Source of the DNA: Candidatus Omnitrophica bacterium CG11_big_fil_rev_8_21_14_0_20_64_10
GTDB taxonomy: Bacteria > Omnitrophota > Gorgyraeia > 1-14-0-20-64-10
Assembly: GCA_002787095.1 (NCBI GenBank)
Contig: PCVW01000069.1
Span: 12,611-53,246 of the forward strand
Length of the DNA stretch: 40,636 nucleotides
Direction: 5' to 3'
The position numbers were made by a program, and so were the translations under genes. The notes below the pieces were generated by a model. That model ran no database searches and was not told the DNA's origin. It was given only the letters and a program-made list of their open reading frames with translations. Positions 3,691-19,512 of this stretch are shown here, piece by piece; the stretch's first letter is position 1, and each line of letters starts with the position of its first letter.

Positions 3691-4512
3691 ATGAGGAGTG
3701 CGCTGTTACTGGGTGGAGGCGGCAGCCGCGGGGCGGTGGAGGTCGGCTTCTATAAGGCCCTCTTTGAGTTGGGTATTCCCGTGGACCGGATCTTCGGGAC
3801 CTCCATCGGGGCCTTGAACGGCGCCTTCATCGCGGCCGGCTTCACGCCGGAACAGCTTGAAGCGCTCTGGATCCGGCTGGAGAAGAAGCCTTTATTCCGT
3901 CGAGACTGGCGTTTCTTGTGGAAGGGCGCGAAAGCGGAGAGTCTCTATCAAGCGGATGGGTTGGTCGACTTTCTGGAATCCGCCCTTCCCGTCAAACGAT
4001 TTGAGGAGCTCAAAATCCCCTTGGTTGTTACGGCTACGGATCTCACGACCTCCGATCCGGTCTACCTCGATTCGGGGGAGCTGCTGCCCGCCCTGTTGGC
4101 CAGCACCGCTATGCCGCCGTACCTGCCGCCCGTGGCGCATCAGGGCCGCCGGCTCGTGGACGGGGGATTTGTGGCGAATGTCCCGATTGGGGAGGCAATA
4201 ACCCGCGGAGCCCAATGCATCCTGGCGATGCTCTGCCATTGCGCTGGAGAGTTGACCCAAATACCCAGGGGTCTTCTGGAAGTTCAGGAGCGCGTCCTGC
4301 GGATCGCCCTGGAGCAGAAATTTCGCCATGACCTGGAGCATTACAAGGACAGAGCCCGGATGATCGTGCTGGAGCCTTGTTTTGATTTACCGTCGGACCT
4401 GCTAAAGATCAGGCAGGTTTCATCCCTGATCCAGCAAGGGTATCAATTCAGCAAAGCCGAACTTTTGAGCCGGATGCCCGACCACTTTCGAGATCATACA
4501 GGGGGTGAGTGA
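3691..4512 (+). CDS. Patatin-like phospholipase
   Basis: GGGGSRG oxyanion loop, GTSIG nucleophile elbow and DGG catalytic Asp motif; strong SD. Confidence 0.92.
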   Translation: MRSALLLGGGGSRGAVEVGFYKALFELGIPVDRIFGTSIGALNGAFIAAGFTPEQLEALWIRLEKKPLFRRDWRFLWKGAKAESLYQADGLVDFLESALPVKRFEELKIPLVVTATDLTTSDPVYLDSGELLPALLASTAMPPYLPPVAHQGRRLVDGGFVANVPIGEAITRGAQCILAMLCHCAGELTQIPRGLLEVQERVLRIALEQKFRHDLEHYKDRARMIVLEPCFDLPSDLLKIRQVSSLIQQGYQFSKAELLSRMPDHFRDHTGGE

Positions 4513-5389
4513 TGAACGCGGAATGTGTCGGCCGGCGGCTCCGCGATGGCGAAAACCGGTGTTGAAAGGGTTTTGTATCCTTCTTGGGGCCGGCGCGCTG
4601 ATTGTATCGGCGCCAGCCGCGGGACAGGCGGCCTCTGAGGAATTCCGCCATGCACTGTACGATCAGATCCTGAAAGAGTACGTCGTTGACGGGCATGTGG
4701 ACTACGCCCGGCTGAAGGAAAACCGGTCCGACCTGGACCAGTACATCGCCTTACTCGCCGGGCTTGAGCCCCACGTCTACGCAATATGGAATACGCCCGC
4801 GAAGATCGCTTTCTGGGTGAACGCCTACAATGCCATCACCCTGAAAGTCATTCTGGATCATTATCCCATTCAACGGGTTTTCTCGCCGGCAACCTTCGTT
4901 TTTCCTGCCAACAGCATCCGCCAGATCCCCGGCGCCTGGGATCGGATCACCCATTCGGTGATGGGCCGGCCGATGACGCTGGATGAGATGGAGCACCGGG
5001 TTCTCCGGAAGGAATTTCAGGAGCCGCGGATTCACATGGCTTTGGTCTGCGCGGCCAAGGGGTGCCCTCCTTTGCGATCCGAGGCATACGAGGGGGAGCG
5101 CCTCGAAGGACAATGGGAAGATCAGGCCCGCCGGTTTCTTTCCGATCCGGCTAGGTTCCGGCTCGACCAGCGAGAGCGCGTGGTCCGGCTTTCATCGATT
5201 TTCCAATGGTTCGGGCAGGATTTCCTCAATGCTTATGGGGCGCCGGAAGGTTTCACAGGACATACCGACATCGAACGGGCTGTTCTGGCGTTCGTCAGCC
5301 GATACCTGAAATCGGAAGATCAAACCTTTCTGAAAGCGGGGAATTACCGGGTGGTTTACGTGGGCTACGATTGGAATCTCAACGAATGA
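4505..5389 (+). CDS. DUF547 domain-containing exported protein
   Basis: AFWVNAYNA, TLDEMEH, EPRIHMALVCAAKGCP, LSSIFQWF and C-terminal YDWNLN. Confidence 0.9.
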   Translation: MSDERGMCRPAAPRWRKPVLKGFCILLGAGALIVSAPAAGQAASEEFRHALYDQILKEYVVDGHVDYARLKENRSDLDQYIALLAGLEPHVYAIWNTPAKIAFWVNAYNAITLKVILDHYPIQRVFSPATFVFPANSIRQIPGAWDRITHSVMGRPMTLDEMEHRVLRKEFQEPRIHMALVCAAKGCPPLRSEAYEGERLEGQWEDQARRFLSDPARFRLDQRERVVRLSSIFQWFGQDFLNAYGAPEGFTGHTDIERAVLAFVSRYLKSEDQTFLKAGNYRVVYVGYDWNLNE

Positions 5390-6819
5390 CCCGGCCCCTT
5401 GCGATTGGCGGGTTAGCCATTCTGGCGGTCTCCGCGGGGTTCTCTTTTTTAAGCCGTTCCTTCCTCTTTGGAACGGGATACCTTGAACGGCCCCTGCTTC
5501 CGTTTGTCGCGTTGTTCGTGGCCGGATCGGCGGCGCTTCTATGGGTCTTCCGGGGTATTTCCTCTCCAAGGCCCCAACCCAACAGTGTTCGCTGGAGGCT
5601 CGCGTGGGTCCTTTTCGTCTCTTTTCTGGCAAGGGGAATCCTGTTTTTTTCCAGCCCCATTCAAGAAGTGGATCCGTACCGGTACCTGTGGGACGGCAAC
5701 GCGGCGCTCCATGGAATCAATCCTTACCGGTACGCCCCCGCGGAGGCCATGGAGCAAACGACCCCTTCTTCTCCGGGGGAAAGGGCATGGCGGGATTCGA
5801 TCCGGTCGAAAGAAGCCCAGAGCGTTTTTGAGCGGATCAGCTATCCGGAAGTCCGAACAATCTATCCTCCTCTTGCTCAAGGCCTGTTCGCTCTGGCGCA
5901 AGGACTGACCCCTTGGTCTCTGCTCGGATGGCGTCTGCTGGTTCTTCTGGCGGATCTGGCCAGTCTGGCGCTGATCATAGGGATCCTTTCCATGGCCCGC
6001 CTGCCCCCGGAATGGGCTCTCCTCTACGGCTGGTCCCCTCTGATCCTGAAAGAGTTCGGCAACTCTCTCCACCTGGACGTTTTTGTTGTCTTGGGTCTCT
6101 GCGGAATGCTCACTGCCCTTCAACGGGGACGCCCGCGGTTGGCGCTCGCGGTCTTGGCGGCCGGAGCGCTGGTGAAACTGGCCCCTCTGATTTTGCTTCC
6201 CCCGTTGTTCGGCTGGGTCTGGAGAGATCAGCCCAGGAGAGCTCTCCAGGGACTGGGATGGGCCTTGGCGCTGATGGGGGCCGGATACCTGCCGTTTTTG
6301 GATGCCGGCGCCCGGGTCTTCGAGGGATTCACGACCTTCGCGGCCCATTGGCGGGTGAACGAAAGTCTCTATGGGTTTTGGAGGGCAGCAGGGTTACCTC
6401 GCGGAGCGCTCTGGGGGTTGATCGCCGCGGCGAGTGTCGGCTACGCCCTTCGATGGATGCGCCAGCCTAAGACCTCTGAAGACCTCCGGCCTTTCTGGAG
6501 AGGATCGATGATGCTGCTGGCCGGGTCTTTCCTCCTTCTCCCCACCGGGAATCCGTGGTACTTCACCTGGATCTTCCCATTTATGGTTCTTGTTCCGGTG
6601 CGGACGCTGAGATGGCTTTCCGGGGCGCTGGGGCTGTACTACTTGGATTTTTACTTCATGTACCGCGGCATGCCGCGCGCCACGGATTGGGTGCGGCTGG
6701 TGGAATACGGATCCACGGCAATGGTGGCTGGCTGGGAGTTATGGCAATGGCGACGGTCTCGATCATTCTTCCCGTCCTCAATGAGCGCGATCTCATTAGC
6801 CGCGCCCTCTCGCATCTGA
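5386..6819 (+). CDS. Multi-pass membrane glycosyltransferase (GT-C, GT87/DUF2029-like)
   Basis: DPYRYLWDG, INPYRYAP, TIYPPLAQ, YGWSPL..KE, H.D, NPWY and many TM helices. Start placed at ATG 5386, overlapping the upstream stop. Confidence 0.8.
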   Translation: MTRPLAIGGLAILAVSAGFSFLSRSFLFGTGYLERPLLPFVALFVAGSAALLWVFRGISSPRPQPNSVRWRLAWVLFVSFLARGILFFSSPIQEVDPYRYLWDGNAALHGINPYRYAPAEAMEQTTPSSPGERAWRDSIRSKEAQSVFERISYPEVRTIYPPLAQGLFALAQGLTPWSLLGWRLLVLLADLASLALIIGILSMARLPPEWALLYGWSPLILKEFGNSLHLDVFVVLGLCGMLTALQRGRPRLALAVLAAGALVKLAPLILLPPLFGWVWRDQPRRALQGLGWALALMGAGYLPFLDAGARVFEGFTTFAAHWRVNESLYGFWRAAGLPRGALWGLIAAASVGYALRWMRQPKTSEDLRPFWRGSMMLLAGSFLLLPTGNPWYFTWIFPFMVLVPVRTLRWLSGALGLYYLDFYFMYRGMPRATDWVRLVEYGSTAMVAGWELWQWRRSRSFFPSSMSAISLAAPSRI

Positions 6820-7574
6820 CTGGTCTCGGAGCGGATGAGATTCTGGTCGTCGACGGGGGCTCGCGGGATGGGACCGACCGGGTGGCCCGGGCCGCTCCGG
6901 GAGTAACCCTGCTCAGGGAGGTCCAAGGCCGGGCGCGTCAGATGAACGCAGGCGTCCGGGCTTCCACGGGAGAGATTCTGCTCTTTGCGCATGCGGACAT
7001 GTCGTTTCCTTCCGGCGCGATCGCGCGGATTCAGGCCGTTATCGGGGAAGGAGCCGCGGGCGGGTGCTTCTTCAAGCGGTACGAGCCCTCCACCCAGCTC
7101 CTTCGGTGGTACGGGTGGGGGCTGAATCATCTGTTTCTGGTCGGCATGCGCCGGATGGTGGGGACGAACGGAATTTTCGTGCGCCGGGATCATTTCTTGA
7201 AGATGGGAGGATTTCCGGAGGTCCCGATCCTGGAAGATCTGATCTTCGCCGATCGATTGCGCCTCCGCGGGCGGTTGGGGGTCGTTCGGCAGCCGGTGAG
7301 TGTTTCCGCCCGCCGGTATGTGAAGGGCGGCATCCTCCGGCAGATTTTGATCAACGGCCGGATCTTTTTGGCGTACGGCTCATCACGGCACCCATCGGAT
7401 CAGTTGCGAATCCTTTATGAATCCCACGCATCCAAAAGAAGGAGGGATGAAGATGAAACGATCGTTCTGGCTGTGCGCAATGGCGGGGATCGCTCTTCTG
7501 AGTTTTGCCGGGACCGGGTCTTGCGCGCAGAACTCGAACAGCGGGAAGTACCTGGTCATCCTGCAGGCCGGTAA
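6741..7574 (+). CDS. GT2 glycosyltransferase, TIGR04283 (arsenosugar biosynthesis-associated)-like
   Basis: SIILPVLNE, VVDGGSRDGT, GRARQMNAG, LLFAHAD, GGFPEVPILED, SARR. The C-terminal ~50 aa overlap the next gene. Confidence 0.85.
   Translation: MAMATVSIILPVLNERDLISRALSHLTGLGADEILVVDGGSRDGTDRVARAAPGVTLLREVQGRARQMNAGVRASTGEILLFAHADMSFPSGAIARIQAVIGEGAAGGCFFKRYEPSTQLLRWYGWGLNHLFLVGMRRMVGTNGIFVRRDHFLKMGGFPEVPILEDLIFADRLRLRGRLGVVRQPVSVSARRYVKGGILRQILINGRIFLAYGSSRHPSDQLRILYESHASKRRRDEDETIVLAVRNGGDRSSEFCRDRVLRAELEQREVPGHPAGR
7408..7436 (+). promoter_or_regulatory. Putative ECF-sigma-type promoter, copy 3
   Basis: GAATCC at 7408 and GCATCCAA at 7428 (20-bp offset), just upstream of the SD of the DsrE-like gene. 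Confidence 0.35.
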
Positions 7575-7908
7575 GGAAAGCCATGAGGGAATGGCGCGGG
7601 CCGTCCACGCGTTCCTGTATGCCCGGGAGCTCAAGGAGCACGGCCATGAGGTTCGGCTCGTCTTCGACGGGGCGGGCACCGAGTGGGCGGAGGAGTTGAG
7701 CAACCCCGCTTTAGAATCCAAGATCAAACCGATGTACGACGAGTTTAAGAAGCTAGGCGTTGAGGAAGTCATCTGCGATTTCTGCGCGGGAGCTTTTGGG
7801 GTAAAGGAGAAACTCCAGGGTCGCCGACTGCCGTTGACCGCCGGGTATGAAGGCCACCCGAGCATCGCCCAATGGGCGGATCAGGGCTACCAGATTGTGA
7901 TCCTATGA
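7453..7908 (+). CDS. DsrE/DsrF-like family protein with signal peptide
   Basis: A.HAFLYARELKEHGHEVRLVFDGAGT, CDFCA (CxxC), YEGHPSI; GGAGGG SD. Confidence 0.75.
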   Translation: MKRSFWLCAMAGIALLSFAGTGSCAQNSNSGKYLVILQAGKESHEGMARAVHAFLYARELKEHGHEVRLVFDGAGTEWAEELSNPALESKIKPMYDEFKKLGVEEVICDFCAGAFGVKEKLQGRRLPLTAGYEGHPSIAQWADQGYQIVIL

Positions 7909-9437
7909 CGATTGTGCCGCCGATGGATGAGAACAACCGGAGGCTGGTTGCGAACGTTCATCCGCCCCAATGGGTCAATCCGGAGCCGTCCGGCCGCTAC
8001 AATCTGGTAGTGATCGGGGCGGGGACCGGCGGCATCGTGACGGCGGCGGGGGCGGCCGGTCTGGGCGCTAAGGTAGCGCTCATCGAAAAGCATCTTCTGG
8101 GAGGAGATTGCCTGAACTACGGCTGCGTTCCTTCCAAGTCGGTGATCCGGTCCGGCCGGGCGGCCGCCGACGCGCGTGGCGCCGGGGCGTTCGGGGTCCG
8201 GGTGCCGGCCGGAACGGAGGTTGATTTTCCGGCGGTCATGGAACGGATGCGACGAATCCGGGCCCACATCAGCCGGCATGATTCGGCGGCGTGTTTGAAG
8301 GAACAAGGAGTGGATGTCTACATCGGCCAGGCCCGATTCTCCGGGCCCGATACCGTCGAGGTGGACGGCAAGACCCTGCGCTTTAAGAAGGCGGTCATCG
8401 CGACCGGCGCGCGAGCGGCGGAGTTGCCGATTCCCGGCCTGAAGGAGGCCGGCACTCTCACGAATGAGACTGTTTTTTCGCTGACGGAACGGCCGCGCCG
8501 GCTGGCCTGTATCGGCGCCGGACCGATCGGCTGCGAGCTGGCGCAGGCCTTCCGGCGGCTCGGCAGCGAGCTGTTCCTTTTTGACGCGGCGCCTCACGTT
8601 CTTATCCGGGAGGATGCCGATGCCGCGGAGATCCTCCAGAAGGTCTTGATGCGGGAGGGGATCCGTCTGATTCTGGACAGCAAGATCCTCCGGATCGAGA
8701 AGAGCCCGGCGGAGAAAATCATCCATTACCAGGTGGGAGGGAAGGCGGAATCGGCTGTGGTGGACGAGATTCTCGTCGGGGTCGGCCGGGCGCCCAACGT
8801 CGAGGGGCTCAACCTGGAGGGGGCGGGGGTGGCGTTCGACACAAAAGCCGGTGTGAAAGTGAACGACCATCTGCAGACCTCCAACGCGCGGATCTACGCG
8901 GTGGGAGATGTCTGCCTGGCCGCGAAGTTCACGCACACTGCCGATGCTTCGGCCCGCATTGTCATCGAGAACGCCCTGTTTCCGAACCTGGGTTTCGTGG
9001 GAAACAAAAAGCTCAGCGCCCTCACCATCCCCTGGTGCACCTACACCGATCCGGAGATCGCCCACGTTGGAATGTACGAAGAGGACGCCCGGAAGGCGGG
9101 AATCCCGGCGGCCACATTCCTCCGGCGTTTCAGCGAGGTTGACCGGGCGCTGGCCGATGGAGAGGAAGAGGGATTCGTGAAAATCCACGTCCGCAAGGGG
9201 ACCGGCCGGATCCTGGGGGCGACGGTGGTGGCCCGGCACGCCGGGGAGATGATGAACGAAATCACCCTGGCCATCGTCCGCGGCATCGGGCTGGGCGCCC
9301 TTTCCTCGGTGATTCATCCTTATCCCACGCAGGCGGAGGCGATCCGGCAGGCGGCGGACGCCTATCAAACGGGTCATCTGACACCGGGTTTGAAACGATT
9401 TCTGGAGAGGTGGTTCGCGTGGAAGCGGCGAGGATAA
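7905..9437 (+). CDS. FAD-dependent pyridine nucleotide-disulfide oxidoreductase (mercuric reductase-like/LPD family)
   Basis: GAGTGG FAD loop, GGDCLNYGCVPSK redox disulfide, GAGPIGCE, HPYPTQAE. No C-terminal CC and no NmerA domain. Confidence 0.9.
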   Translation: MTIVPPMDENNRRLVANVHPPQWVNPEPSGRYNLVVIGAGTGGIVTAAGAAGLGAKVALIEKHLLGGDCLNYGCVPSKSVIRSGRAAADARGAGAFGVRVPAGTEVDFPAVMERMRRIRAHISRHDSAACLKEQGVDVYIGQARFSGPDTVEVDGKTLRFKKAVIATGARAAELPIPGLKEAGTLTNETVFSLTERPRRLACIGAGPIGCELAQAFRRLGSELFLFDAAPHVLIREDADAAEILQKVLMREGIRLILDSKILRIEKSPAEKIIHYQVGGKAESAVVDEILVGVGRAPNVEGLNLEGAGVAFDTKAGVKVNDHLQTSNARIYAVGDVCLAAKFTHTADASARIVIENALFPNLGFVGNKKLSALTIPWCTYTDPEIAHVGMYEEDARKAGIPAATFLRRFSEVDRALADGEEEGFVKIHVRKGTGRILGATVVARHAGEMMNEITLAIVRGIGLGALSSVIHPYPTQAEAIRQAADAYQTGHLTPGLKRFLERWFAWKRRG

Positions 9438-9441
9438 CCCA

Positions 9442-10092
9442 ATGAGGCGAGTAGGAAGATGGCTCCTTGTCGTCGGGCTGCTCGCCGTCGTGATCGGCTG
9501 GTGGTGGCAGCATCGGACCACGATCAACCCGTCTGCACTCAGGGCCTGGATTGCCCAGTTCGGGGCGGCCGCGCCGTTTATTTACGTGGCGCTGTACGCA
9601 GCGAATACCGTGACCCTCCTGCCGCCGATAGGAGTGCTCTCCCTCACTGCCGGTTTGGCGTTCGGGCCGGCGATCGGCTTTCTCGCCATCATGGCGGGGG
9701 CGATGATCGGAACATCACTGACGTTTCTGATCAGCCGGCGGCTGGGGCGCGGGTTCGTTGAACATCGGTTGAAGGGGAGGTTCAAATCGCTGGACGAGGC
9801 GCTCGAGCGGCGGGGATTCGCCACCGTCCTGTTCTTCCGGGTCGTCCCGATCGTTCCCTACGAGGCGCTGAACTACGTTTCAGGCCTGTCCAAGATCCGC
9901 TTTCGGGATTATGGTTTGGCGACTTTCTTGGGCCTTCTGCCGGGCGCGGCGGTGGCCGCCTTCTTCGGGGATTCGCTGACGCAGCCGTTTTCGCCCAAAT
10001 TCATCGCCGCGGTAGGAGCCCTGGTACTTTTGATCGCCATTCCAACCATTTATCTGAAGCTAAGGAGGAAAGTTCCCCATGGAGCTGACTGA
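9442..10092 (+). CDS. TVP38/TMEM64 (DedA/SNARE-associated) membrane protein
   Basis: AGLAFG...G, FLISRRLGR, RVVPIVPYEALNY..GL, T.LGLLPG. Confidence 0.9.
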   Translation: MRRVGRWLLVVGLLAVVIGWWWQHRTTINPSALRAWIAQFGAAAPFIYVALYAANTVTLLPPIGVLSLTAGLAFGPAIGFLAIMAGAMIGTSLTFLISRRLGRGFVEHRLKGRFKSLDEALERRGFATVLFFRVVPIVPYEALNYVSGLSKIRFRDYGLATFLGLLPGAAVAAFFGDSLTQPFSPKFIAAVGALVLLIAIPTIYLKLRRKVPHGAD

Positions 10093-12613
10093 GCGACAGA
10101 GGATCTATGCGCCCCAAGCCGTGCACTGGGAGGAGGACGGGATCCATCTGTTCCTCGATCCGGAATCGCCCCACTGGGTCGCCACGGATGCCCGTGGAGC
10201 GCAGATCATGGGGTGGATCGGTGAGGGGTTGTCGTTCGGGCAGTTCATTCAACGGTACTCATCTGTTCACCGTGTGGGTCCCGCCAAGGCGTGGCTCCAC
10301 GTCCATGATTTCGTCCAGTCGTTGCTACGAGTCGGTTTCGCACGCCTTAAACCGATCGTTCCGACCCCGTACCTGGGGCGCGCCGCCTACGCTCATCCGA
10401 CCGGCTTGAAGGAGTTGTGGTTCCACACCAACAACATCTGCAACCTGGCCTGCACCCACTGCCTGGTCAATTCAGCGCCCTGGGTGCAGGACTGGGGGTT
10501 GCCCACGCCGGAGGTGATGCGCCTCGTCGACGAAGCGGTAGTTCTTGGCGTGGAGCGCTTCTACTTTACCGGCGGCGAACCGTTCATGCGCAAGGACATC
10601 TTTGAACTCATCCGAACCATCACTGAAACCAGGGGGCGCGAGCTCATCGTCCTCACCAACGCTACCCTGTTCAAAGGCGAAAAAGCTGAGGAGGTGAAGC
10701 GCTTGGACCGGAGAAAAGTCCGGTTTCAGGTGAGCATCGATGGGGCCTCGCCGGAAACGAACGACCGGATCCGCGGCAAGGGATCTTTCCAATCGGCGGT
10801 GGAAGGTTTGCGTTTCCTGGCCTCCCTGGGATTCCAGACCTCGATCACCACGGCCGTCACCGCCGCGAATCTTCAGGACCTCCTGGGAATCACCCGCTTA
10901 GGCAGCGAGCTGGGCGTTGCCACCCAGCATCTCATGTGGCTGCACAAGCGGGGCCGGATCGTGGGCCGCGAACGCTTTCCCTCAGCCGAGCAGTTGATCG
11001 AGGTTGTCCGGCAGGTCAAGGCGTTGGCCGGGGAACTGGGGATCGCCGTGGACAACGTCGAATCGATCAAACGCCGGGTCAATGGCCGGCCAGGGGTCAA
11101 ATATGATCTCGGCAACGCCTGCTGGGATTCCCTGTGCGTCTATTCGGATGGAACGGTCTACCCATCGGCGGCGATGGTGAACACAAAGCCGTTGGCATTA
11201 GGTTCTATCAAAGACGGTGGACTTCAGAAGCTCTTGGAAGGATCGCCGGTGGCCGGGGCCTTCCGACAGGCCACGGTGGCGGCCAAGGCGGATCTTCGCG
11301 ACGATCCGTTCCGTTACCTGACAGGCGGCGGCGATCTGGAACATAGTTTCTGGTTTAACCTCAACGGAGAGTCCTCTGCCGCGGCCATTGCTCCTGAGCG
11401 GATGACAGCGCTCTTGACCGGCCCCGATCCGTACTATCCTCTCTACACGGCGATGATCCAGGATGCGATGTGGGATCTGGCACGCGCTGCCCGCGCAGCT
11501 GTCAACCGGCGCTCCGGTTACGACGTCCCTCGCGTCTTGCACGCGATGGGCGATGGGGCGATCCACTGCGCCACGGACGATCTGGCGGTCACCGGCGAAG
11601 TGGACATCCGGACGCTGCATTCGAATTGCGTGCTGGCCTTCGATGTGGACAAACCGCGCAAGCTCGTGCGCGAATTCTACGGGAAGGCGGCCGAGACCCC
11701 GCAGGCGGAACTCTGCTGCCCGACGAAATTCGACGACTTGAGCGTCAGCCACATCCCGAAAGAGGTGATCGACCGGTTCTACGGGTGCGGCTCGCCGGTG
11801 ACGTTGGGAGCGCTTGAGGCCGGGGAAACCTTTGTGGACTTGGGTTCCGGGGCCGGCATCGACTGCTTCATCGCGGCGAAATTCGTCGGACCGGCCGGCA
11901 AGATCATCGGGATCGACATGACGGATGAAATGCTCAAAGTCGCCGATGAGAACCGGCCGATCGTAGCGGCGAATCTCGGTTACGACGTCGTGAAATTCCG
12001 CAAGGGGTATCTGGAGCAGGTTCCTGTGGAATCCAAGTCAGCGGATTTGGTGACTTCCAATTGCGTCGTCAACCTTTCGCCGGACAAACCGAAGGTGTTT
12101 TCTGAAATCTGGCGGATCCTCAGGGATCACGGGAGAACCGTGATTGCCGACATCGTCTCCGCTCTGCCGGTACCCGCACATCTCAAGGTCAATCCTGAAC
12201 TCTGGGGAGAGTGTATCGTAGGGGCGTTGACCGAGGAAGAGTTCTTGGCCCGTTTGGAGGAGGCCGGCTTCTACGGCTTGTCCATCTTGAAGAAGGTGTA
12301 CTGGAAAACAGTCGAGGGATTCGACTTCTATTCGGTGACCGTCCGTGGCTACAAGTTTGAGAAGACCGTCGGGTGCTTATTTCTCGGTCAAAAGGCGGTT
12401 TACCTGGGGCCCATGAAGGCGGTGGTGGATGAGGAAGGGCATCTATTCCCCCGGGACGTGGAGGTGGAAGTCTGCACCGACACTGTCGCCAAACTTTCCC
12501 GCCCACCCTACGCCGGGTCGTTCACCGTCCTGGAGCCCGCCGCTACACGGGTCGAGGTAACTGCTTCCGGACTCCCCCTTAAAACCGCTGAATGCGGGCC
12601 GGGGTGTTGTTGA
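10079..12613 (+). CDS. Radical SAM / arsenite methyltransferase (ArsM-like) fusion protein with N-terminal PqqD-like domain
   Basis: CNLACTHC, FTGGEPF and LTNAT in the rSAM domain. The ArsM half has LCCP, FYGCGSP, VDLGSGAGIDCF, SNCVVNL and LWGECI. The protein ends CGPGCC. Confidence 0.88.
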   Translation: MELTERQRIYAPQAVHWEEDGIHLFLDPESPHWVATDARGAQIMGWIGEGLSFGQFIQRYSSVHRVGPAKAWLHVHDFVQSLLRVGFARLKPIVPTPYLGRAAYAHPTGLKELWFHTNNICNLACTHCLVNSAPWVQDWGLPTPEVMRLVDEAVVLGVERFYFTGGEPFMRKDIFELIRTITETRGRELIVLTNATLFKGEKAEEVKRLDRRKVRFQVSIDGASPETNDRIRGKGSFQSAVEGLRFLASLGFQTSITTAVTAANLQDLLGITRLGSELGVATQHLMWLHKRGRIVGRERFPSAEQLIEVVRQVKALAGELGIAVDNVESIKRRVNGRPGVKYDLGNACWDSLCVYSDGTVYPSAAMVNTKPLALGSIKDGGLQKLLEGSPVAGAFRQATVAAKADLRDDPFRYLTGGGDLEHSFWFNLNGESSAAAIAPERMTALLTGPDPYYPLYTAMIQDAMWDLARAARAAVNRRSGYDVPRVLHAMGDGAIHCATDDLAVTGEVDIRTLHSNCVLAFDVDKPRKLVREFYGKAAETPQAELCCPTKFDDLSVSHIPKEVIDRFYGCGSPVTLGALEAGETFVDLGSGAGIDCFIAAKFVGPAGKIIGIDMTDEMLKVADENRPIVAANLGYDVVKFRKGYLEQVPVESKSADLVTSNCVVNLSPDKPKVFSEIWRILRDHGRTVIADIVSALPVPAHLKVNPELWGECIVGALTEEEFLARLEEAGFYGLSILKKVYWKTVEGFDFYSVTVRGYKFEKTVGCLFLGQKAVYLGPMKAVVDEEGHLFPRDVEVEVCTDTVAKLSRPPYAGSFTVLEPAATRVEVTASGLPLKTAECGPGCC

Positions 12614-12614: not shown

Positions 12615-13754
12615 ATGCTGCTTCCTTTAGCCCTCCTGGCCGCCGTCCTGTTCCTGGCGTACACCAACGGGGCGAACGACAACTTCAAGGGGGTGGCCAC
12701 CCTGTTTGGCAGCCGCACGACAGGATACGGCAGGGCGATCACCTGGGCGACCGTGACGACGTTCGCCGGCTCCCTGACGGCGGTCTGGTTATCGCAGGGG
12801 CTCATCCATGCCTTTAGCGGAAATGGATTGGTCCCGACAGCTGTGACGGCGCAGCCCGCTTTCCTGTTGGCCGTCGGCCTGGGAGCGGCCTTCACCGTAT
12901 TCCTGGCGACGATCACCGGGTTGCCGATCTCCACGACTCATGCCTTGACCGGCGCTCTCGTGGGCGCCGGCCTCGTCCAGGCGGGTTCGGTCGATTTCGC
13001 CAGACTGGGTCAGAGTTTCTTTCTCCCATTGGCCGTCAGTCCGGTGTTGAGTTTCGCTCTCACGGGCGGCCTCTATCCGATCTTTCGCCTGGTGCGCGCG
13101 CGTCTGGGCATCGAACGGCAGATGTGTCTCTGTATCGGCGGCGGCCGACTCCAGCCCGTGCAGATCCGGCCGGATGGCGCGGCGGTGCTCCAAGCGACGG
13201 GGATGAAGCTCTCCGTGGGCCAGCTCCAAGAGTGTGTTCAGCGGTATGAGGGGCGGGTCATCGGGATCGATGCCCAGTGGATTTTAGACCGGCTTCATTA
13301 TCTCTCGGCCGGCGCGGTCAGTTTCGCGCGGGGCCTGAACGACACGCCGAAAATCGTGGCCCTGCTCCTGGCCGCGCGGGGGCTTGGGCTTAGTCCGTCG
13401 ACCGGGATAGTTGCCGTCGGCATTGCCATGGCGGTTGGCGGACTCCTGAATGCCCGGAAAGTCGCCGTTACCGTGAGCCAGCGGATCACCCCCATGAACC
13501 ATGGGCAGGGGTTTACCGCCAACCTCGTCACCTCCGGTTTGGTCACGATGGCTTCGCTATTCGGTCTGCCGGTGTCAACGACCCACGTCTCTTGCGGATC
13601 TCTCTTTGGGCTGGGGGCCGTTAATCGGACAGCCCAGTGGAAGGTGATTCAATCTATCGTGCTTTCTTGGGTTGCGACCCTGCCGTTGGCTGCAGGGGTG
13701 GGGGCTGTAATCGCTTGGGGAATCGGGGGAGTTTCACCATGGCCCTTTCCGTAA
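12615..13754 (+). CDS. Inorganic phosphate transporter, PiT family
   Basis: NGANDNFKGVATL, GLPISTTHALTGAL, GLNDTPKI, GLPVSTTHVSCGS. Confidence 0.92.
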   Translation: MLLPLALLAAVLFLAYTNGANDNFKGVATLFGSRTTGYGRAITWATVTTFAGSLTAVWLSQGLIHAFSGNGLVPTAVTAQPAFLLAVGLGAAFTVFLATITGLPISTTHALTGALVGAGLVQAGSVDFARLGQSFFLPLAVSPVLSFALTGGLYPIFRLVRARLGIERQMCLCIGGGRLQPVQIRPDGAAVLQATGMKLSVGQLQECVQRYEGRVIGIDAQWILDRLHYLSAGAVSFARGLNDTPKIVALLLAARGLGLSPSTGIVAVGIAMAVGGLLNARKVAVTVSQRITPMNHGQGFTANLVTSGLVTMASLFGLPVSTTHVSCGSLFGLGAVNRTAQWKVIQSIVLSWVATLPLAAGVGAVIAWGIGGVSPWPFP

Positions 13755-15091
13755 TCATCCCGACGCTGAATGAGGCTGGAACCCTTCCATGCCTTCTTGC
13801 CCCATTGCGGGCGGGAGAGGTGCCGGAGGTTCTCGTTGTAGATGGGGGCAGCCGTGACGGCACCCGGGATGTCGCCCGGAGATGGGGCGTGACGTTTCTG
13901 CCGTCAGCCCGGGGGCGAGCGGCGCAGATGAATCGGGGCGCGGCAGTTGCCCACGGCGACTGGCTCTGGTTCCTGCACGCGGATGCGGTTCTCCCGCTGG
14001 ATTGGCAAGATCAACTCCGCCGCGCAATGGAAGATCCGGCTGTCGTCGGAGGCGGTTTCCGGCCCGTCATCGATGCGTCCGGAGCGGGCTACCGGTTCCT
14101 GAATGCGTGGGGGCGGCTGAGAATGAGGGTCCAGCGCAGTTTGTACGGGGATCAGGGGATCTTTGTCCGCCGGGATCTGTTTGAGCGTTTAGGGGGGTTC
14201 GCGGAGATCCCCGTGTGCGAAGATGTCGAGTTCTCCAGACGAATGTGGCGGGCCGGACGGGTGGCGATTCTTCCAGGCCCGCTCCGCACCTCGGCCCGGC
14301 GATGGCGGCGAAACGGCTGGTGGCGAACAGTCACGGAACATACGATCCTGGCCCTCCGCTATGAACTGATGAAGGATAAGCAGCGGTTGCCCACCTATGC
14401 GCTGTTGGCGCCGACCCCGTCCGTTCATCTGGTCGTGGTGGCGAAGGCGCCGATCCCGGGGCGCGTGAAGACGCGGTTGACGCCGCCGCTGTCGGCGGCC
14501 GAGGCCGCTCAGGTGGCCCGCGCGCTGTTGGAAGATACCTTGCGGCGAGTCGGGCGCGTTCCCGGCACTCGGCTGGTTGTCGCGGTGGATCCGCCGGAAG
14601 CCGTCCCGATGATGCGGAAAATCGCTCCAGGAGCTGAGGTCGTGCCGCAAGCCGCGGGAGATCTAGGGGCGCGAATGTCAGCCATCGTCGCGGACCGGTT
14701 CACTCGTGGGGCCTCGGCGGTCATCCTGATCGGCAGCGATCATCCCACTTTGGGGCGGGCGCAGATGGATCAGGCGATCCACTGGCTGCGCGAGGACGGC
14801 GATCCGCTGGTGATCGGCCCGGCCGAGGACGGCGGCTATTACCTGATCGGGCTCACGCGGCCGCACCTTGAGTTGTTCAGCCGAATCTCCTGGAGCGGGC
14901 CTACCGTGCTGCGGGAAACGTTGGCCTGCGCCCTGGACGCCGGTCTGCAGATCCGGCAGCTCTCCGTAGACCGCGATGTGGACACGATCGAAGATCTCGT
15001 TCGGTTGCAGCAACGGCTTTCAGGTGATCATGACGTTGCGCCGGCCACGGCCCGTTGGCTGCAGCGCCGTCGGATTCCAGTGGTAGGATAA
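13739..15091 (+). CDS. Fusion of TIGR04283-like GT2 and TIGR04282/DUF2064 (CofC-like) domains
   Basis: N-half: SVIIPTLNE, VDGGSRDGT, GRAAQMNRGA, FLHAD, YGDQG, TSARRW. C-half: AKAPIPGRVKTRL, QAAGDLGARM, IGSDHP, GPAEDGGYYLIG, DVDTIEDL. Confidence 0.9.
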   Translation: MALSVIIPTLNEAGTLPCLLAPLRAGEVPEVLVVDGGSRDGTRDVARRWGVTFLPSARGRAAQMNRGAAVAHGDWLWFLHADAVLPLDWQDQLRRAMEDPAVVGGGFRPVIDASGAGYRFLNAWGRLRMRVQRSLYGDQGIFVRRDLFERLGGFAEIPVCEDVEFSRRMWRAGRVAILPGPLRTSARRWRRNGWWRTVTEHTILALRYELMKDKQRLPTYALLAPTPSVHLVVVAKAPIPGRVKTRLTPPLSAAEAAQVARALLEDTLRRVGRVPGTRLVVAVDPPEAVPMMRKIAPGAEVVPQAAGDLGARMSAIVADRFTRGASAVILIGSDHPTLGRAQMDQAIHWLREDGDPLVIGPAEDGGYYLIGLTRPHLELFSRISWSGPTVLRETLACALDAGLQIRQLSVDRDVDTIEDLVRLQQRLSGDHDVAPATARWLQRRRIPVVG

Positions 15092-15099
15092 CAACCGTC

Positions 15100-15870
15100 A
15101 TGTCTCACTCGACTGTATTGATCGTGCAAGTCACCGTTTTGGGCTTTTGTCTCTGGCTCGAATCCGTCGTCCCCGTATTTCTTCGGCAGCCGGGGCCACG
15201 GATGCGGCACGGCTCCCGCAACATCGCCATCGGGTTGGTCAACGGCGCCGTCCTCACCGCCGGTTTCTCCGGCTTGGTTTTTGCAGCGGTTCACTGGGGC
15301 GGGGCACATCCGGTCGGCGTCCTTCATTGGATCACGCTACCAGCATGGTCCGAACGGCTGATCGGATTCATCGTTTTTGACCTGTGGATGTACCTCTGGC
15401 ACCGGGCCAATCACGGCCTCCCGTGGTTCTGGCGATTCCACCGGGTGCATCACAGCGATCTGGCGGTGGACGTGACCACGGCCCTGCGATTCCACTTAGG
15501 CGAAATGGTGCTCTCAACCCTCTTACGGCTGGCGGTGATCCCGCTGCTGGGAATCACCCTGGGCGATCTGCTCCTCTACGAGATGATCCTTCAGCCGGTT
15601 ATCTACTTCCACCACAGCAACATCGCCCTGCCTGAAGCGTGGGACCGCCTGATGCGCCTGGCGGTCGTTTCCCCCAATATGCACCGGGTGCACCATTCGG
15701 ACATCCCCTCAGAAACCAATTCCAACTACGCCAGCATCTTTTCTTTCTGGGACCGCTTCGGGCGCACGTACCGTCGGCGGGACATCCGGACGATCCGGTA
15801 CGGGCTGAAGGAATTCCTCGAGCCTCGGTGGCAAACGCTGATCGGGCTGCTGAGGATGCCTCTGGCGTAA
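15100..15870 (+). CDS. Sterol desaturase / fatty acid hydroxylase family protein
   Basis: His boxes HRANH, HRVHHSD, FHHSN, HRVHHS; NYASIFSFWDR. Confidence 0.9.
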   Translation: MSHSTVLIVQVTVLGFCLWLESVVPVFLRQPGPRMRHGSRNIAIGLVNGAVLTAGFSGLVFAAVHWGGAHPVGVLHWITLPAWSERLIGFIVFDLWMYLWHRANHGLPWFWRFHRVHHSDLAVDVTTALRFHLGEMVLSTLLRLAVIPLLGITLGDLLLYEMILQPVIYFHHSNIALPEAWDRLMRLAVVSPNMHRVHHSDIPSETNSNYASIFSFWDRFGRTYRRRDIRTIRYGLKEFLEPRWQTLIGLLRMPLA

Positions 15871-15891: not shown

Positions 15892-16785
15892 TCAGAAGGT
15901 GGTGCGGGCTCCGACCACCACGTTGTAGTCGGTGCCCAGCTCGTTTCCGTTTAAAGATTCTACGATGGGCACCTGAACGGAGGCCTCCAGCAGCCACCGG
16001 GAAGTGACGTACTGGACGCCCGGCGAGAGGAACAAGGTGTAACCTCCCGAGTCCTTGATCGTTCCTCCGGAGCGGTGCTTGGTCTGCCAGACGCCGTTGA
16101 GCTCCAGGACGGCGTGAAGGGCACGTGGAGTGGACCATTCTGCCGATTCGGCCGGCCATACCCGAACCCAAGCGCCGGTGTTGTGCTGAAAGAAATCCCC
16201 GAACTGAAGGTCATCATGTCCGGTGTTCACCTGGTAGACCAGATCCTGGCTGATCTCATACCATTGAGTCTGCCGGGTAAAGACGATTCCGGCCAATGGA
16301 TCCCAAGAGCCGGAGCCGAGGCGAACGGCGGGCGGCAAACGGCCTTGTGCGTCGGATTCATCGTCTTCTCCGGTTGGGAGCTTCAATCCGCCCAGAAGGG
16401 CAAACCGGGTCGTTGCCCCGGGCGCATCTTTCCGCCAGAGGCGTGCTTTAAGAAACAGCTTGAGGTCTCCGATTCCGCTGGCCTCCCGGCTGACTCGTTG
16501 GCCGCCGCTCACGGTGCGCAGATCTTTGTCAAGGTATGGCACCGCCAGGAACCCCGCGGTCGACTCGGTGATTCCATGGACGACGACCAGCTTCACCGCA
16601 TCCACCGTCATGGAGCGGTTCTGGTCGGTGGGATCATCCCCTTTGCGGGTTCGGGAGTACTGCGTCCGCAGGATCGTCTGTCCCTTGGCCGGATTCAAAG
16701 CGATGTCCGTGTTGATGGCTGAAAACGCCGGCCCGCCGTGAAGCAGAAACGCCAACCCCAGGATAAGGATGGCGTTCCTCCTCAC
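15892..16785 (-). CDS. Putative outer-membrane beta-barrel 'transporter' (phenol MetA-pathway-like)
   Basis: Signal peptide; GIGDL, GLKLPTG, LGSGSWD, LELNG, LSPGVQY; C-terminal Phe. Confidence 0.7.
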   Translation of the reverse strand: MRRNAILILGLAFLLHGGPAFSAINTDIALNPAKGQTILRTQYSRTRKGDDPTDQNRSMTVDAVKLVVVHGITESTAGFLAVPYLDKDLRTVSGGQRVSREASGIGDLKLFLKARLWRKDAPGATTRFALLGGLKLPTGEDDESDAQGRLPPAVRLGSGSWDPLAGIVFTRQTQWYEISQDLVYQVNTGHDDLQFGDFFQHNTGAWVRVWPAESAEWSTPRALHAVLELNGVWQTKHRSGGTIKDSGGYTLFLSPGVQYVTSRWLLEASVQVPIVESLNGNELGTDYNVVVGARTTF

Positions 16786-17336
16786 GGTTTGACCTCCAGG
16801 ATCGTCTCAATCTCCATCGCCGGAGGCAACCCTTGGTGCTCATGGACCGTCCCGGAAACTTTCACCAGGGTGCGGCTCGACTGCCAGCCGGCGAGGCGGC
16901 GTTCCAGGGCCGGATCCCCAATCGTGTGTTCAGGTGTCAGGGTGGTCTTGCTCTCCTCCTTGAACAGGAGGAACTGCTGGCCGGTCCCGCGTGTCTCCAG
17001 CACCGGATGGTCTTCCCACTGTGCAACCGTTCCAATGGCGGTCAGCCGGATCGCCCTTAAGGTGAAACCGGTGTCCGCCACGGCCTGTCGGAATTGGGCA
17101 AGATCGACTGATTGCCCTGGTTTGACTCCCATTCGGACAACGCCCTCTTTGTAGTTCGTCTGAAGGGAGCCTGCGGCCCCGAGCTTCTTGAGCGGCTTCT
17201 CGATGTTGAACACGCAGAACGGGCAGGATAGCCCGTCGATGCGAAGCTCCACCTCCGTCACTTCGGCCCATGCGGTCTGCCCTCCCATGTCCAAGAGGGT
17301 TGTCAGGAACCCGATGAGAAGCAGTTTTCTCAGCAT
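16782..17336 (-). CDS. Exported heavy-metal-associated (HMA) domain protein
   Basis: Signal peptide ending AWA; IDGLSCPFC metal-binding loop; AVADTGF; an extra C-terminal domain. Confidence 0.85.
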   Translation of the reverse strand: MLRKLLLIGFLTTLLDMGGQTAWAEVTEVELRIDGLSCPFCVFNIEKPLKKLGAAGSLQTNYKEGVVRMGVKPGQSVDLAQFRQAVADTGFTLRAIRLTAIGTVAQWEDHPVLETRGTGQQFLLFKEESKTTLTPEHTIGDPALERRLAGWQSSRTLVKVSGTVHEHQGLPPAMEIETILEVKP

Positions 17337-17342
17337 TGAATG

Positions 17343-17813
17343 TCACCTCCTCTCTTTTGCTTTTTGGACGGCCCCCGTGACATTCCCCAGGCAGCAGGAA
17401 CCTTGTGGATTAGTGATTTCACAGTAGCAGTTACCGGCCTTCACCTGCGCCTTGATCTGTTCAACCACCGTGCTTTTGCCGGTTACCTGAATCTCAGCGC
17501 GGATCTTCTCAGGCGTCCAGCCAAAACAGTAACAGACGGGCGCTGAAGGATCGGCGGGCTCTTTGAGCCCGACCTTTACCGCCAGATCTTCTTCTCGGAA
17601 CAAGATCTCTCCAGGCCGGAAGTAGATCACGTCACAGGCGGGGGTCCGGCAAAAGCAGAACTCCTCCTGGTTCGGGATGTGCGGGCGGGCTTCCGGTTTC
17701 AGCAAGGCGCCCAAGGTGATCCGCTTGACCGGCTTGCCCAGGGCCCCGCATGCAGGGCATTTCGCTGGACCGCAGATCGTGGGGGGATGAAATTCGCAGC
17801 AGGCCTCGCTCAC
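17343..17813 (-). CDS. CopZ N-terminal-like zinc/Fe-S metallochaperone (Csac_0668-like)
   Basis: GTG start overlapping the merT stop; CPACG, FCRTPACDVIYF, VCYCFG, CYCEITNPQGSCCLGNV. Confidence 0.85.
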   Translation of the reverse strand: MSEACCEFHPPTICGPAKCPACGALGKPVKRITLGALLKPEARPHIPNQEEFCFCRTPACDVIYFRPGEILFREEDLAVKVGLKEPADPSAPVCYCFGWTPEKIRAEIQVTGKSTVVEQIKAQVKAGNCYCEITNPQGSCCLGNVTGAVQKAKERR

Positions 17814-18160
17814 GGTTGCCTCGGGCAGGAGATGGTGCAGGCGGCCTGCGTCGCCAGTGGCCACAGGTGCAGGAGGGCGAAGCCCGCCACCACGGCTGAG
17901 GCCACCGACAGGACAGCCAAAGTAGCTACCCCACCGGCCATCCGGCATCGCGCCGTCCTGCAACGCCTGGCCTCTGCGACATACCGCCGCCACCCGAACG
18001 TCAGCAGAACGGCGGCCGCGGCCACCAGGAGCCCCGAAAAACGGGTAAAGAAGACGCTGACGCCCAGCCCCCCGAGCCCGATGGCTGCGAGGGCTGCCGG
18101 GCCCAGGCAACAGGCCGACGCGGTGAGGGCTGAACCGATCCCCAGCTTCGCCGCGTTCAT
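17810..18160 (-). CDS. merT: Mercuric transport protein, MerT family
   Basis: ASACCLGP in TM1, three TM helices and a cytoplasmic CRTARC pair. Confidence 0.72.
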   Translation of the reverse strand: MNAAKLGIGSALTASACCLGPAALAAIGLGGLGVSVFFTRFSGLLVAAAAVLLTFGWRRYVAEARRCRTARCRMAGGVATLAVLSVASAVVAGFALLHLWPLATQAACTISCPRQP

Positions 18161-18166
18161 GGTGGC

Positions 18167-18352
18167 TCAGAGTTTCTTCAGCTCGCCCGATTGGATCTTC
18201 TCAACGAGGGTGTTCCAGGCCTCCCGGTTCAGCGTGACCAGATTGCCCTCCTCGCCGATTGCCACTTCCTCCTTGGCGATATTGATCACGACCTCTGGAC
18301 AGGCCCCGCAGGCCGGGCAGAGAGATACCTGGAACTTCGGTTGCTGATTCAT
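18167..18352 (-). CDS. Small Cys-rich hypothetical protein
   Basis: 61 aa with LCPACGACPEV and IGEEGNLVTL...WN.LV; overlaps the merR stop and has an upstream GGGGG SD-like run. Confidence 0.75.
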   Translation of the reverse strand: MNQQPKFQVSLCPACGACPEVVINIAKEEVAIGEEGNLVTLNREAWNTLVEKIQSGELKKL

Positions 18353-18786
18353 TTTGACGCCCCCTTTGCTTTCTTACCTTTTGCATTCCCCATAATCGTC
18401 GGACAGAGCGCTTTACCGGTAAGCCGGGTGCCAGGCCTCCGCGATCGGCTCAAGGCCGTGCGGATTCGGGATCGGACCGCGTTTAAATCAGAAATCTTTT
18501 GAGCCAACTCGGCCAACTTCGATTTCAGAACCTGCCGAACGTGCCCGCAGGGGCACGACCCCCGGTCTGAGAGATCCAGGATCTCCCGGATCTCGTCCAG
18601 TTTTAATCCCAGGTGTTGCGCCTTCTTGATGAACTGAATCCGCTCGGTAATCCCCGGCCCGTGCAATCGGTAGCCGGAGAATGTCCTCTTTGCTTTTGGG
18701 AGCAGCCCTTCTTTCTCGTAGAATCGGACTGTCCAGGCATCCACCTGTGCTTCCCGCGCGATCTGTCCCACAGTCAATCCGTTCAT
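18349..18786 (-). CDS. MerR-family heavy-metal-responsive transcriptional regulator
   Basis: TVGQIAREAQV..WTVRFYEKEGLL, GYRL, FIKKAQHLGLKLDEIREIL, CPCGH and C-terminal CP. Confidence 0.93.
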   Translation of the reverse strand: MNGLTVGQIAREAQVDAWTVRFYEKEGLLPKAKRTFSGYRLHGPGITERIQFIKKAQHLGLKLDEIREILDLSDRGSCPCGHVRQVLKSKLAELAQKISDLNAVRSRIRTALSRSRRPGTRLTGKALCPTIMGNAKGKKAKGASK

Positions 18787-18876: not shown

Positions 18877-18905
18877 TTGACAATCCGAAGTTCAGTATGT
18901 ATTAT
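18877..18905 (+). promoter_or_regulatory. Sigma70 promoter for the abiE operon
   Basis: TTGACA (18877-82), 17 bp, TATTAT (18900-05). The ATG lies 7 nt downstream. Confidence 0.75.
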
Positions 18906-18912
18906 TAGCAGT

Positions 18913-19512
18913 ATGGCTAATAAAGTGAATTTGATAGAAGTTGAGCACGCCATCCGGAAGCGTGGGCTCCGATTGTTCAGCCCTTTGGAGCTCCAGCGTA
19001 TTCTGGGCATTTCTGCCATCGCGGCGCGCTTTCTTGTGCATCGCTATGCCAAGCGAGGAGTGTTCCTCAAACTTCGGAATGGGCTCTATTGCCTGGCGGA
19101 TCAGCCCCCGTCAGAACTGGTCCTTGCTAATCGGCTCTACGAGCCGTCGTACATCTCGTTCGAATTCGCCTTGTCGCATCACCACCTGATCCCGGAGGCT
19201 GCCTACGTGATCACCTCGGCGACCACACGTCCTACGCGGGCGTTGACGGCACTCGGCAAGACATTTGAATACCATCGGCTGAAGAAGTCGGTGTTTACCG
19301 GTTATGAACCGGTAAAGATGGGGGCGGAAACTGTCCTCATGGCTGTGCCGGAAAAAGCTGTGATCGACACGTTGTACTTTGCAGACTTACGGAAGAAAGA
19401 GTTGAACGACCGGCTTGACCTGCGGACTCTCAGCGGGAAACGGCTGCGGTCCTATGCTCAGCTATTTGAGCGCCCCTCTTTGCTTCAGCTTCTCAAGAAG
19501 GTGATGGGGTGA
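18913..19512 (+). CDS. abiEi: Type IV TA antitoxin, AbiEi family
   Basis: N-terminal wHTH (LKLRNGLY), PSYISFEFALSHHHLIPE, ITSAT, PEKAVID.LY. Confidence 0.88.
   Translation: MANKVNLIEVEHAIRKRGLRLFSPLELQRILGISAIAARFLVHRYAKRGVFLKLRNGLYCLADQPPSELVLANRLYEPSYISFEFALSHHHLIPEAAYVITSATTRPTRALTALGKTFEYHRLKKSVFTGYEPVKMGAETVLMAVPEKAVIDTLYFADLRKKELNDRLDLRTLSGKRLRSYAQLFERPSLLQLLKKVMG

Follow-up and report, generated by a model that had tools for sequence, protein, structure and literature searches.

We analyzed a 40,636-nt stretch of DNA (hereinafter, the window) from Candidatus Omnitrophica bacterium CG11_big_fil_rev_8_21_14_0_20_64_10 (phylum Omnitrophota; contig PCVW01000069.1, positions 12,611-53,246), which encodes on the plus strand, at 10079..12613, an 844-aa protein (P0001) that combines a radical S-adenosylmethionine (rSAM) module with an ArsM-type As(III) methyltransferase. 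This fusion probably represents a separate, uncharacterized route to carbon-arsenic bonds. Under the interpretation that we favor, and to which we give a little better than an even chance, P0001 is a bifunctional enzyme that would methylate As(III) and form the next C-As bond, acting as a non-homologous stand-in for ArsS. Four lines of evidence that bear on this proposal were established directly, namely, the domain anatomy of the protein, the non-membership of its rSAM module in the ArsS family, the position of the gene in its cluster and the co-occurrence pattern across genomes. In particular, in our genome sample, the fusion tracks TIGR04282, which, like TIGR04283, is named 'arsenosugar biosynthesis glycosyltransferase' in NCBIfam, and does so mostly in genomes that lack ArsS.

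Domain architecture of the fusion protein

The open reading frame (ORF) of P0001 begins with an ATG and shares 14 nt with the end of the VTT gene upstream, and the resulting N-terminus (MELTE...) is kept among the aligned homologs. Altogether, 1228 proteins of nearly the same length, among the 7998 candidates scored, match P0001 at E <= 0.001, indicating that this is a real gene rather than a chance ORF. All 120 listed close homologs (796-923 aa, 55-86% identity) contain both the Radical_SAM and the methyltransferase Pfam domains; in the source databases, they are named 'methyltransferase domain-containing protein' or carry a generic rSAM/methyltransferase double name, and three entries from the Joint Genome Institute (JGI) are named '7,8-dihydro-6-hydroxymethylpterin dimethyltransferase'. 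The P0001-type family includes 576 confirmed stretches among the GTDB species representatives. For the comparisons described below, 49 of the 150 relatives listed by a representative search were scanned for Pfam domains, and a set of 80 related loci was examined, of which 79 are fusion loci and one (L090) encodes a free ArsM instead. The gene was also detected, in whole or in part, in 15 DNA sequencing runs, two of which contain at least half of its words (one of the two may be the source of the sequence), and there is no RNA run among these matches.

P0001 consists of four parts: an N-terminal domain resembling PqqD and the recognition elements (RRE) of peptides that are synthesized ribosomally and modified post-translationally (RiPPs), an rSAM core, a region with the SPASM fold, and an ArsM module with a disordered tail ending in CGPGCC. 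The full-length structural model has a pLDDT (predicted local distance difference test) of 88.0 and a pTM (predicted template modeling score) of 0.88, the latter of which would speak for a defined arrangement of the domains.

The N-terminal domain (aa 1-95, 10079..10363) has a beta3-alpha3 organization in the AlphaFold2 model of aa 1-520 that was built on a 44-sequence alignment (pLDDT 93.5, pTM 0.92), with predicted strands at 15-19, 22-27 and 32-36 followed by helices at 38-48, 53-64 and 68-84; W33 is invariant in the 44 sequences, and P31, G40 and F78 are nearly so. The similarity to RRE-containing peptide maturases extends through the entire module. VIA-align superposes residues 12-471 of the model onto residues 2-450 of CteB (5wgg_A; Z 30.7, root mean square deviation 4.7, 410 aligned residues) and residues 7-484 onto TigE (8vpo; Z 25.4), in both cases including the N-terminal domain of the maturase; SkfB, SuiB and CteB occupy the top Foldseek ranks, and the alignment profile matches CteB with an E-value of 1.4e-32 over profile positions 17-461. 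The Pfam PqqD family (PF05402) shows no match at E <= 1 to aa 1-105 of P0001; it matches 12 of the 49 scanned relatives (best value, 3.7e-10) and is carried by 6 of the 120 listed close homologs according to a precomputed domain list.

The rSAM core (aa 108-335, 10400..11083), delineated by Pfam, alignments and structure match, scores 89.6 bits with Radical_SAM (PF04055; cut-off 29.5) and contains the CxxxCxxC motif (C121/C125/C128, nt 10439-10462), which is present in 43 of the 44 aligned relatives, along with a GGE motif (G165-G166-E167) that is invariant among them. It is followed by the SPASM-fold region (aa 338-475, 11090..11503), recognized by alignment, Pfam and superposition: the fold is kept after the rSAM barrel, with the model up to residues 471-484 superposing on CteB, anSME and TigE, and the match to the Pfam SPASM family (PF13186) is 18.6 bits, under the cut-off of 21.5. 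The nine columns that hold Cys in relatives read G345, C348, C353, S363, L374, L406, D409, T415 and D419 in P0001, leaving only C348 and C353 of the ligands for the two auxiliary [4Fe-4S] clusters. The loss is graded across the family: all or nearly all SPASM Cys are kept in 19 of the 79 aligned fusion loci, mostly from Thermodesulfovibrionia; C374, C406, C409 and C415 are kept in another 19, mostly from Scalindua; and these four are lost, with none or only the first two of the Cys columns remaining, in 6 loci that resemble P0001 and in 35 Desulfobulbales-type loci with a DUF5714 extension. This gradation provides a natural series in which the need for SPASM clusters can be explored. The rSAM module is derived from an RRE-rSAM-SPASM peptide-maturase scaffold, with both sets of auxiliary-cluster Cys lost.

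The end of the rSAM module (aa 484-520, 11528..11638), defined by alignments, includes the conserved C497 and H514-S-N-C517; the counterpart of the latter motif, HCxCVL, forms the C-terminus of stand-alone rSAM relatives, and such relatives, for example P0148, have a Cys-rich tail. The loop 497-505 is of low confidence in both predicted models. A locus search with P0148 retrieved a single weak locus. In two other relatives of the rSAM module, P0146 and P0151, the place of ArsM is taken by one or two fused TusA sulfur-carrier domains, and in Thermodesulfovibrionia the gene after the fully Cys-bearing form of the fusion encodes a BchE/HpnJ-like, B12-binding radical SAM protein (L038:12334-13818), in an otherwise housekeeping context.

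The ArsM-type module with its own C-terminal domain (aa 524-818, 11648..12532) was identified through PDB profile and alignment matches, with an E-value of 1.3e-38 for the ArsM structure 5evj. It contains the Rossmann SAM-binding motif DLGSGAG, and C546/C547, C570, C662 and C712 align with the CC/C, GCG, SNC and GEC positions of the solved ArsMs (5evj, 4kw7). The NCBIfam ArsM models yield 222.4 bits (NF008823, vs 263), 196.9 bits (NF040538, vs 500) and 148.8 bits (NF038099, vs 400). The free ArsM of L090 (genome G025), which is 63% identical to aa 524-831 of P0001 and adjoins TIGR04169, a bona fide ArsS (415.4 bits) and TIGR04282, likewise falls under these cut-offs (234.8, 207.5 and 162.3 bits, respectively). 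The ArsM module is followed by a predicted disordered tether (aa 822-844, 12542..12610; pLDDT < 50), which ends in C839-G-P-G-C843-C844; the three Cys are invariant in a 19-sequence alignment, and the C-terminal CC is present in 114 of the 120 listed close homologs. Compared to the known ArsM/AS3MT enzymes (5evj, 4fr0, 4kw7), P0001 shares the methyltransferase fold, the four conserved Cys positions and the C-terminal domain, but differs in that the methyltransferase is located behind a 520-aa rSAM module and ends with the CxxxCC tail, which the L090 ArsM lacks. On neither half of P0001 does any NCBIfam model attain its cut-off. Both catalytic modules are intact.

An earlier note, made from the sequence of this DNA alone, had proposed the same anatomy, that is, a three-strand/three-helix PqqD-like N-terminus, a CxxxCxxC rSAM core, a Cys-depleted SPASM region, a full ArsM with the typical Cys and a CGPGCC tail. 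Each of these assignments withstood the structural modeling and alignments described above, with the qualification that, for the N-terminal domain, the agreement comes from the AlphaFold2 secondary structure and the CteB and TigE superpositions, the PqqD family of Pfam being without a match on P0001 itself.

Fusions of rSAM and ArsM recur in many phyla, with either module first: in P0162, P0163 and P0191, the ArsM-like methyltransferase is N-terminal and the rSAM module is C-terminal. A further variant, P0159 (948 aa), consists of the RRE-rSAM module, ArsM and a TIGR04283-type glycosyltransferase; the TIGR04283 match (134.8 bits) reaches the end of the protein, so that the record may be cut. 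Separately, a DUF5714 C-terminal extension, which yields proteins of 1000-1200 aa, was detected in 10 of the 49 scanned relatives; versions with this extension are encoded at L069:9824-13099 and in ~35 Desulfobulbales-type loci, and include P0130, P0166 and P0167. In NCBIfam, DUF5714 is related to the 'metal-binding double selenoprotein MbdU'. The DUF5714-bearing versions show no Cys in the C546/C547 columns, which may reflect misalignment.

Considering that the SPASM part is plainly degenerate and that the ArsM part alone has all the catalytic residues, the rSAM module could be viewed as a degenerate passenger, or as an appendage with a structural or regulatory role, in a protein that is only an arsenite methyltransferase involved in detoxification. 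We consider this scenario the least probable of all, and very unlikely, given the near-universal CxxxCxxC and the invariant GGE, the pLDDT of 93.5 with which the module is modeled, the occurrence of the fusion in both domain orders in many phyla, and the lack of ars resistance genes beside the fusion among the ORFs scanned.

The similarity of the rSAM module to peptide maturases raises a different possibility, also put forward in the earlier note, namely, a peptide or protein substrate (an arseno-RiPP). The RRE-like domain would recruit a peptide or a protein, perhaps a carrier or the Cys tail of the enzyme itself, which the rSAM module would modify, with arsenic installed on or through it. 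The high conservation of the RRE-like domain and the whole-length match to RRE-bearing maturases are in line with this scenario, as is the conserved CxxxCC tail on its disordered tether, which could act as a tethered core peptide. Compared to maturases of the CteB/TigE/SkfB/SuiB type, P0001 has the same whole-length fold but differs in the loss of the auxiliary Cys, including the ligands of the peptide-binding cluster, in the fused ArsM and in its arsenic/glycosyltransferase context, where the neighbors are transport, redox and glycosyltransferase genes rather than peptidases or RiPP exporters. The best NCBIfam scores of the rSAM module, all far under the cut-offs, are 142.9 bits for the Rv1681 family and, among the maturases, 111.2 bits for StsB (NF045574, vs 625). 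Furthermore, we clustered 5707 small ORFs (25-120 aa) located within 4 kb of the fusion in the 80 loci and the window, and no cluster included an ORF from the window (BLASTP, E <= 1e-4), although this is a weak test for short peptides; by their appearance, the large clusters resembled shadow frames of conserved genes. The remark in the earlier note that no clear precursor is evident accordingly stands, while the arseno-RiPP idea itself, lacking a shared small ORF near the gene and with the auxiliary-cluster Cys gone, finds no support here and appears highly unlikely.

Probable replacement of ArsS by the fusion

In agreement with the suggestion in the earlier note that this rSAM enzyme is unlike ArsS, the ArsS model (TIGR04167, arsenosugar biosynthesis radical SAM (seleno)protein) scores 62.5 bits on P0001 against a cut-off of 300, covering only positions 7-151 of 303 (65.1 bits in the genome search), and BLASTP with a bona fide ArsS aligns 158 core residues at 25% identity; classification of P0001 as ArsS was rejected on the basis of this score and the core-only coverage. 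The homology with ArsS ends at the rSAM core, the C-terminal half of ArsS being unmatched, and P0001 possesses the RRE-like domain and the SPASM-fold region, both of which ArsS lacks. The two are alike in the pairing of rSAM with ArsM, in the slot between the VTT and TIGR04282-type genes, and in the fusion with ArsM, which ArsS shows in relatives of the source genome. In the source genome itself (1.73 Mb, 91.66% complete), no ArsS over the cut-off was found, the best TIGR04167 match being P0001, and there is no other strong ArsM match, with the next best at 52.9 bits.

Comparison with related genomes indicates that the fusion takes the place of ArsS in the gene cluster. In G160, a genome of the same class, the genes for TIGR04283, the FAD (flavin adenine dinucleotide)-containing oxidoreductase, the VTT protein, an ArsS-ArsM fusion and TIGR04282 follow in an order that is collinear with the window, and in G098, also of this class (L133), the order is the same, with a 669-aa ArsS frame that was recognized from tblastn and frame length, without NCBIfam annotation. 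The ArsS-ArsM fusion of G160 (L132:3950-6001, 683 aa) consists, according to NCBIfam, of an N-terminal ArsS (407.8 bits) and a C-terminal ArsM. In G146, from the same family as the source genome, the gene order is patatin, the FAD-containing oxidoreductase, VTT, the P0001-type fusion, a glycosyltransferase and PHO4. The prediction of the earlier note that the fusion occupies the place of ArsS is borne out by this collinearity and by the lack of co-occurrence described next; its premise of a stand-alone ArsS does not hold in general, given the ArsS-ArsM fusions of 683 aa (annotated) and ~669 aa (by frame length and tblastn) in same-class relatives. In the ArsS-ArsM fusions, the ArsM half shows only 31-33% identity to the ArsM of P0001, compared to 63% for the L090 ArsM, and P0001 is therefore not the product of a mere exchange of domains within the local gene; judging from these sequence identities, replacement of the local gene by a whole fusion gene appears more likely.

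Among the 201 sampled genomes of the phylum, 26 encode TIGR04282, including the source genome, and the 25 others were examined for ArsS and the fusion. ArsS without the fusion was found in 19 of these genomes (in 15 of the 19, ArsS and TIGR04282 share a contig and are no more than 7 kb apart), the fusion without ArsS in three (G066, G126 and G146, all from the source genome's own family), and both together in none; the remaining three genomes (96, 93 and 69% complete) encode neither.

Outside the phylum, 25 genomes were reached via the fusion loci, of which G025, with its free ArsM at L090, was dropped. TIGR04282 was detected at E <= 1e-20 in all 24 remaining fusion-bearing genomes and over the cut-off in 23 (133.5 vs 134 bits in G010); by comparison, it is present in 26 of the 201 genomes sampled from the phylum and in 1 of 14 controls. 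TIGR04282 is located within 10 kb of the fusion in 5 of the 24 fusion-bearing genomes. ArsS is absent in 21 of these genomes, scores over the cut-off in two (G010 and G017) and is in pieces in G015. In G010, the fusion is the sole ArsM-like gene; this fusion keeps C374, C406, C409 and C415, and those of G017 and G015 belong to the fully Cys-bearing form. The ArsS of G015 (L099, G015:C10, about 132677-133584) is split into three pieces with one in-frame TGA, compatible with either a selenoprotein form or a broken gene.

Several observations weigh against the favored model or call for caution. The three fusion-only genomes of the phylum are all kin, and so represent one replacement event rather than three. 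The background rates of TIGR04282 come from the phylum sample and the controls, not from the phyla of the fusion-bearing genomes themselves. ArsS and the fusion coexist in 3 of the 24 genomes from other lineages, showing that two rSAM enzymes can coexist, and the rSAM module of the fusion may do something else there. Many of the 80 loci contain none of the window neighbors in the flanks searched; by tblastn, PHO4 was found in 14, the GT-C-type glycosyltransferase in 11, the TIGR04283/TIGR04282-type glycosyltransferase in 9, VTT in 8, DUF547 in 7 and the FAD-containing oxidoreductase in 5. Only 5 loci were retrieved in a separate search with the window glycosyltransferase, and these do not enter the counts. 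Every NCBIfam ArsM model is under its cut-off on P0001. In sequence as in fold, what the rSAM module has in common with ArsS is limited to the core. Finally, the conserved RRE-like domain has no role in the favored model.

Some of these points would fit an enzyme whose rSAM module makes a C-As bond other than that formed by ArsS, yielding a new organoarsenical, either through an ArsL-like 3-amino-3-carboxypropyl transfer or through a carbon radical, generated on a small substrate such as a sugar or lipid, that captures thiol-bound arsenic, comparable to the C-S bonds formed by the related sactisynthases. The module shares its scaffold with enzymes of the CteB, SkfB and SuiB type, which take a hydrogen from the substrate and form C-S or C-C links; furthermore, apart from the coexistence with ArsS in the three genomes, 71 of the 80 loci have no TIGR04283/TIGR04282 match by tblastn in the flanks searched, and the window includes lipid-related neighbors (patatin, fatty acid hydroxylase and DUF547). 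We nevertheless view this alternative as unlikely. The accessory genes of ArsS are retained in the same order, and TIGR04282 is present in 24 of 24 fusion-bearing genomes, suggesting that the product is still usable by those enzymes, and the loss of both auxiliary clusters suits a redox-neutral addition better than an oxidative cross-link.

Proposed function and mechanism

In the favored model, in which P0001 stands in for ArsS, the enzyme is the ArsM-coupled radical SAM step of an arsenosugar-type pathway, built on an unrelated scaffold. Retention of the downstream genes makes the same product as that of ArsS, or a very similar one, the most economical reading. From the combination of domain anatomy and context, we infer the likely substrate, product, arsenic ligands, role of the tail and roles of the neighboring genes as follows. 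The ArsM module would catalyze SAM-dependent methylation of As(III), and the rSAM module would form the next C-As bond on methylated trivalent arsenic, the likeliest reaction being the addition of the 5'-deoxyadenosyl radical to trivalent dimethylated arsenic, DMAs(III), that is, the ArsS step of arsenosugar synthesis. This adenosylation of DMAs(III) is deduced from the cluster position and the co-occurrence pattern only. The thiols that hold trivalent arsenic are probably C497 and C517, both at the rSAM module's end, together with the CGPGCC tail on its disordered tether of ~22 residues, and the tail could shuttle arsenic between the active sites of ArsM and rSAM. The neighboring genes might provide for arsenate uptake, thiol reduction and conversion of the product to arsenosugar or arsenolipid compounds.

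The ArsS reaction, in which the 5'-deoxyadenosyl radical adds to DMAs(III), is redox-neutral, with the electron returning to the rSAM cluster (PMC13598754). A reaction of this type makes auxiliary clusters needless, in keeping with their loss in P0001. As(III) in ArsL is bound by three Cys of the C-terminal RCCLKC motif (PMC13598754). Like P0001, ArsL is an rSAM enzyme that works alongside an ArsM and has a Cys-rich extreme C-terminus, and it acts on thiol-bound trivalent arsenic (PMC13598754), as would P0001 in the favored model. The SAM cleavage by ArsL is non-canonical, a trait that sequence does not predict. The CGPGCC tail of P0001, which is located after the ArsM module, is similar in kind to that of ArsL but differs in the motif, and the ArsL model (NF040542) is not among the best 25 of the 87 NCBIfam matches for P0001.

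In a 2025 review, the ArsS and ArsL reactions are the only radical SAM C-As bond formations given as known (PMC12159101). No paper on the rSAM-ArsM fusion was found in a full-text literature search, the scope of which left out most subscription journals and supplements. It is conceivable, though in our estimate improbable, that the fusion represents a third, independently evolved class of arsenic-directed rSAM enzymes after ArsS and ArsL, derived from a RiPP-maturase scaffold and with a chemistry unlike both, in which arsenic borne by the Cys-rich swinging tail, on its way between the ArsM and rSAM sites, would be coupled with a substrate-carbon or SAM-derived radical, yielding an undescribed organoarsenical in anaerobes (Omnitrophota, anammox Scalindua, Acidobacteriota and Desulfobulbales). 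A different chemistry would amount to a new carbon-arsenic bond-forming reaction. If, as we favor, P0001 catalyzes the ArsS step, surveys in which arsS serves as the marker would overlook lineages from groundwater and sediment, as well as anammox lineages, that synthesize arsenosugars or arsenolipids, and the fusion would be a clear case of one rSAM scaffold replacing another at the same pathway position.

Genomic neighborhood in the window

The fusion gene belongs to a row of genes on the plus strand. Upstream, library scans identified a patatin-like lipase (3691-4512) and a DUF547 protein (4505-5389), which are followed by a 537-aa putative membrane glycosyltransferase similar to GT87/MptA_B (5206-6819). 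The latter assignment comes from an ESM Atlas lead only (score 0.99, 230/256 features), and the ORF has no Pfam or NCBIfam match; tblastn detected relatives of this ORF in 11 loci out of the 80, and those in Scalindua are encoded directly upstream of the fusion. Next come a second TIGR04283-like glycosyltransferase (6555..7574; 180.5 bits vs a cut-off of 182, true start probably later), a DsrE-like protein found by library scan (7417..7908), the FAD-containing disulfide oxidoreductase (7872..9437; NF004991, 809.7 bits vs a cut-off of 620), and a VTT/DedA-type membrane protein (9442..10092), recognized by library scan and by tblastn in relatives, which immediately precedes the fusion. Downstream, the library scan identified a PHO4-family phosphate transporter (12615..13754), for which a role in arsenate uptake is conjectural; this gene is followed by a fused TIGR04283 and TIGR04282 protein (13637..15091; 232.6 and 186 bits, both over the cut-off, true start probably after 13637) and, again from the library scan, a fatty acid hydroxylase family protein (15055..15870). 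No ars resistance genes were found beside the fusion among the ORFs scanned.

Beyond this row, the opposite strand at 15892-18786 carries a metal-handling group that includes a MetA-pathway-like outer membrane protein, an HMA-like protein, an Fe-S metallochaperone of the CopZ-N-terminal type (119 bits, over the cut-off) and a MerR-family regulator. A CusF-SCO1 fusion is encoded upstream, at 1828-2712 on the plus strand, and an ORF at 18877-19512 on the same strand shows weak similarity to AbiEi-type antitoxins (NCBIfam, 24.5 bits, under the cut-off).

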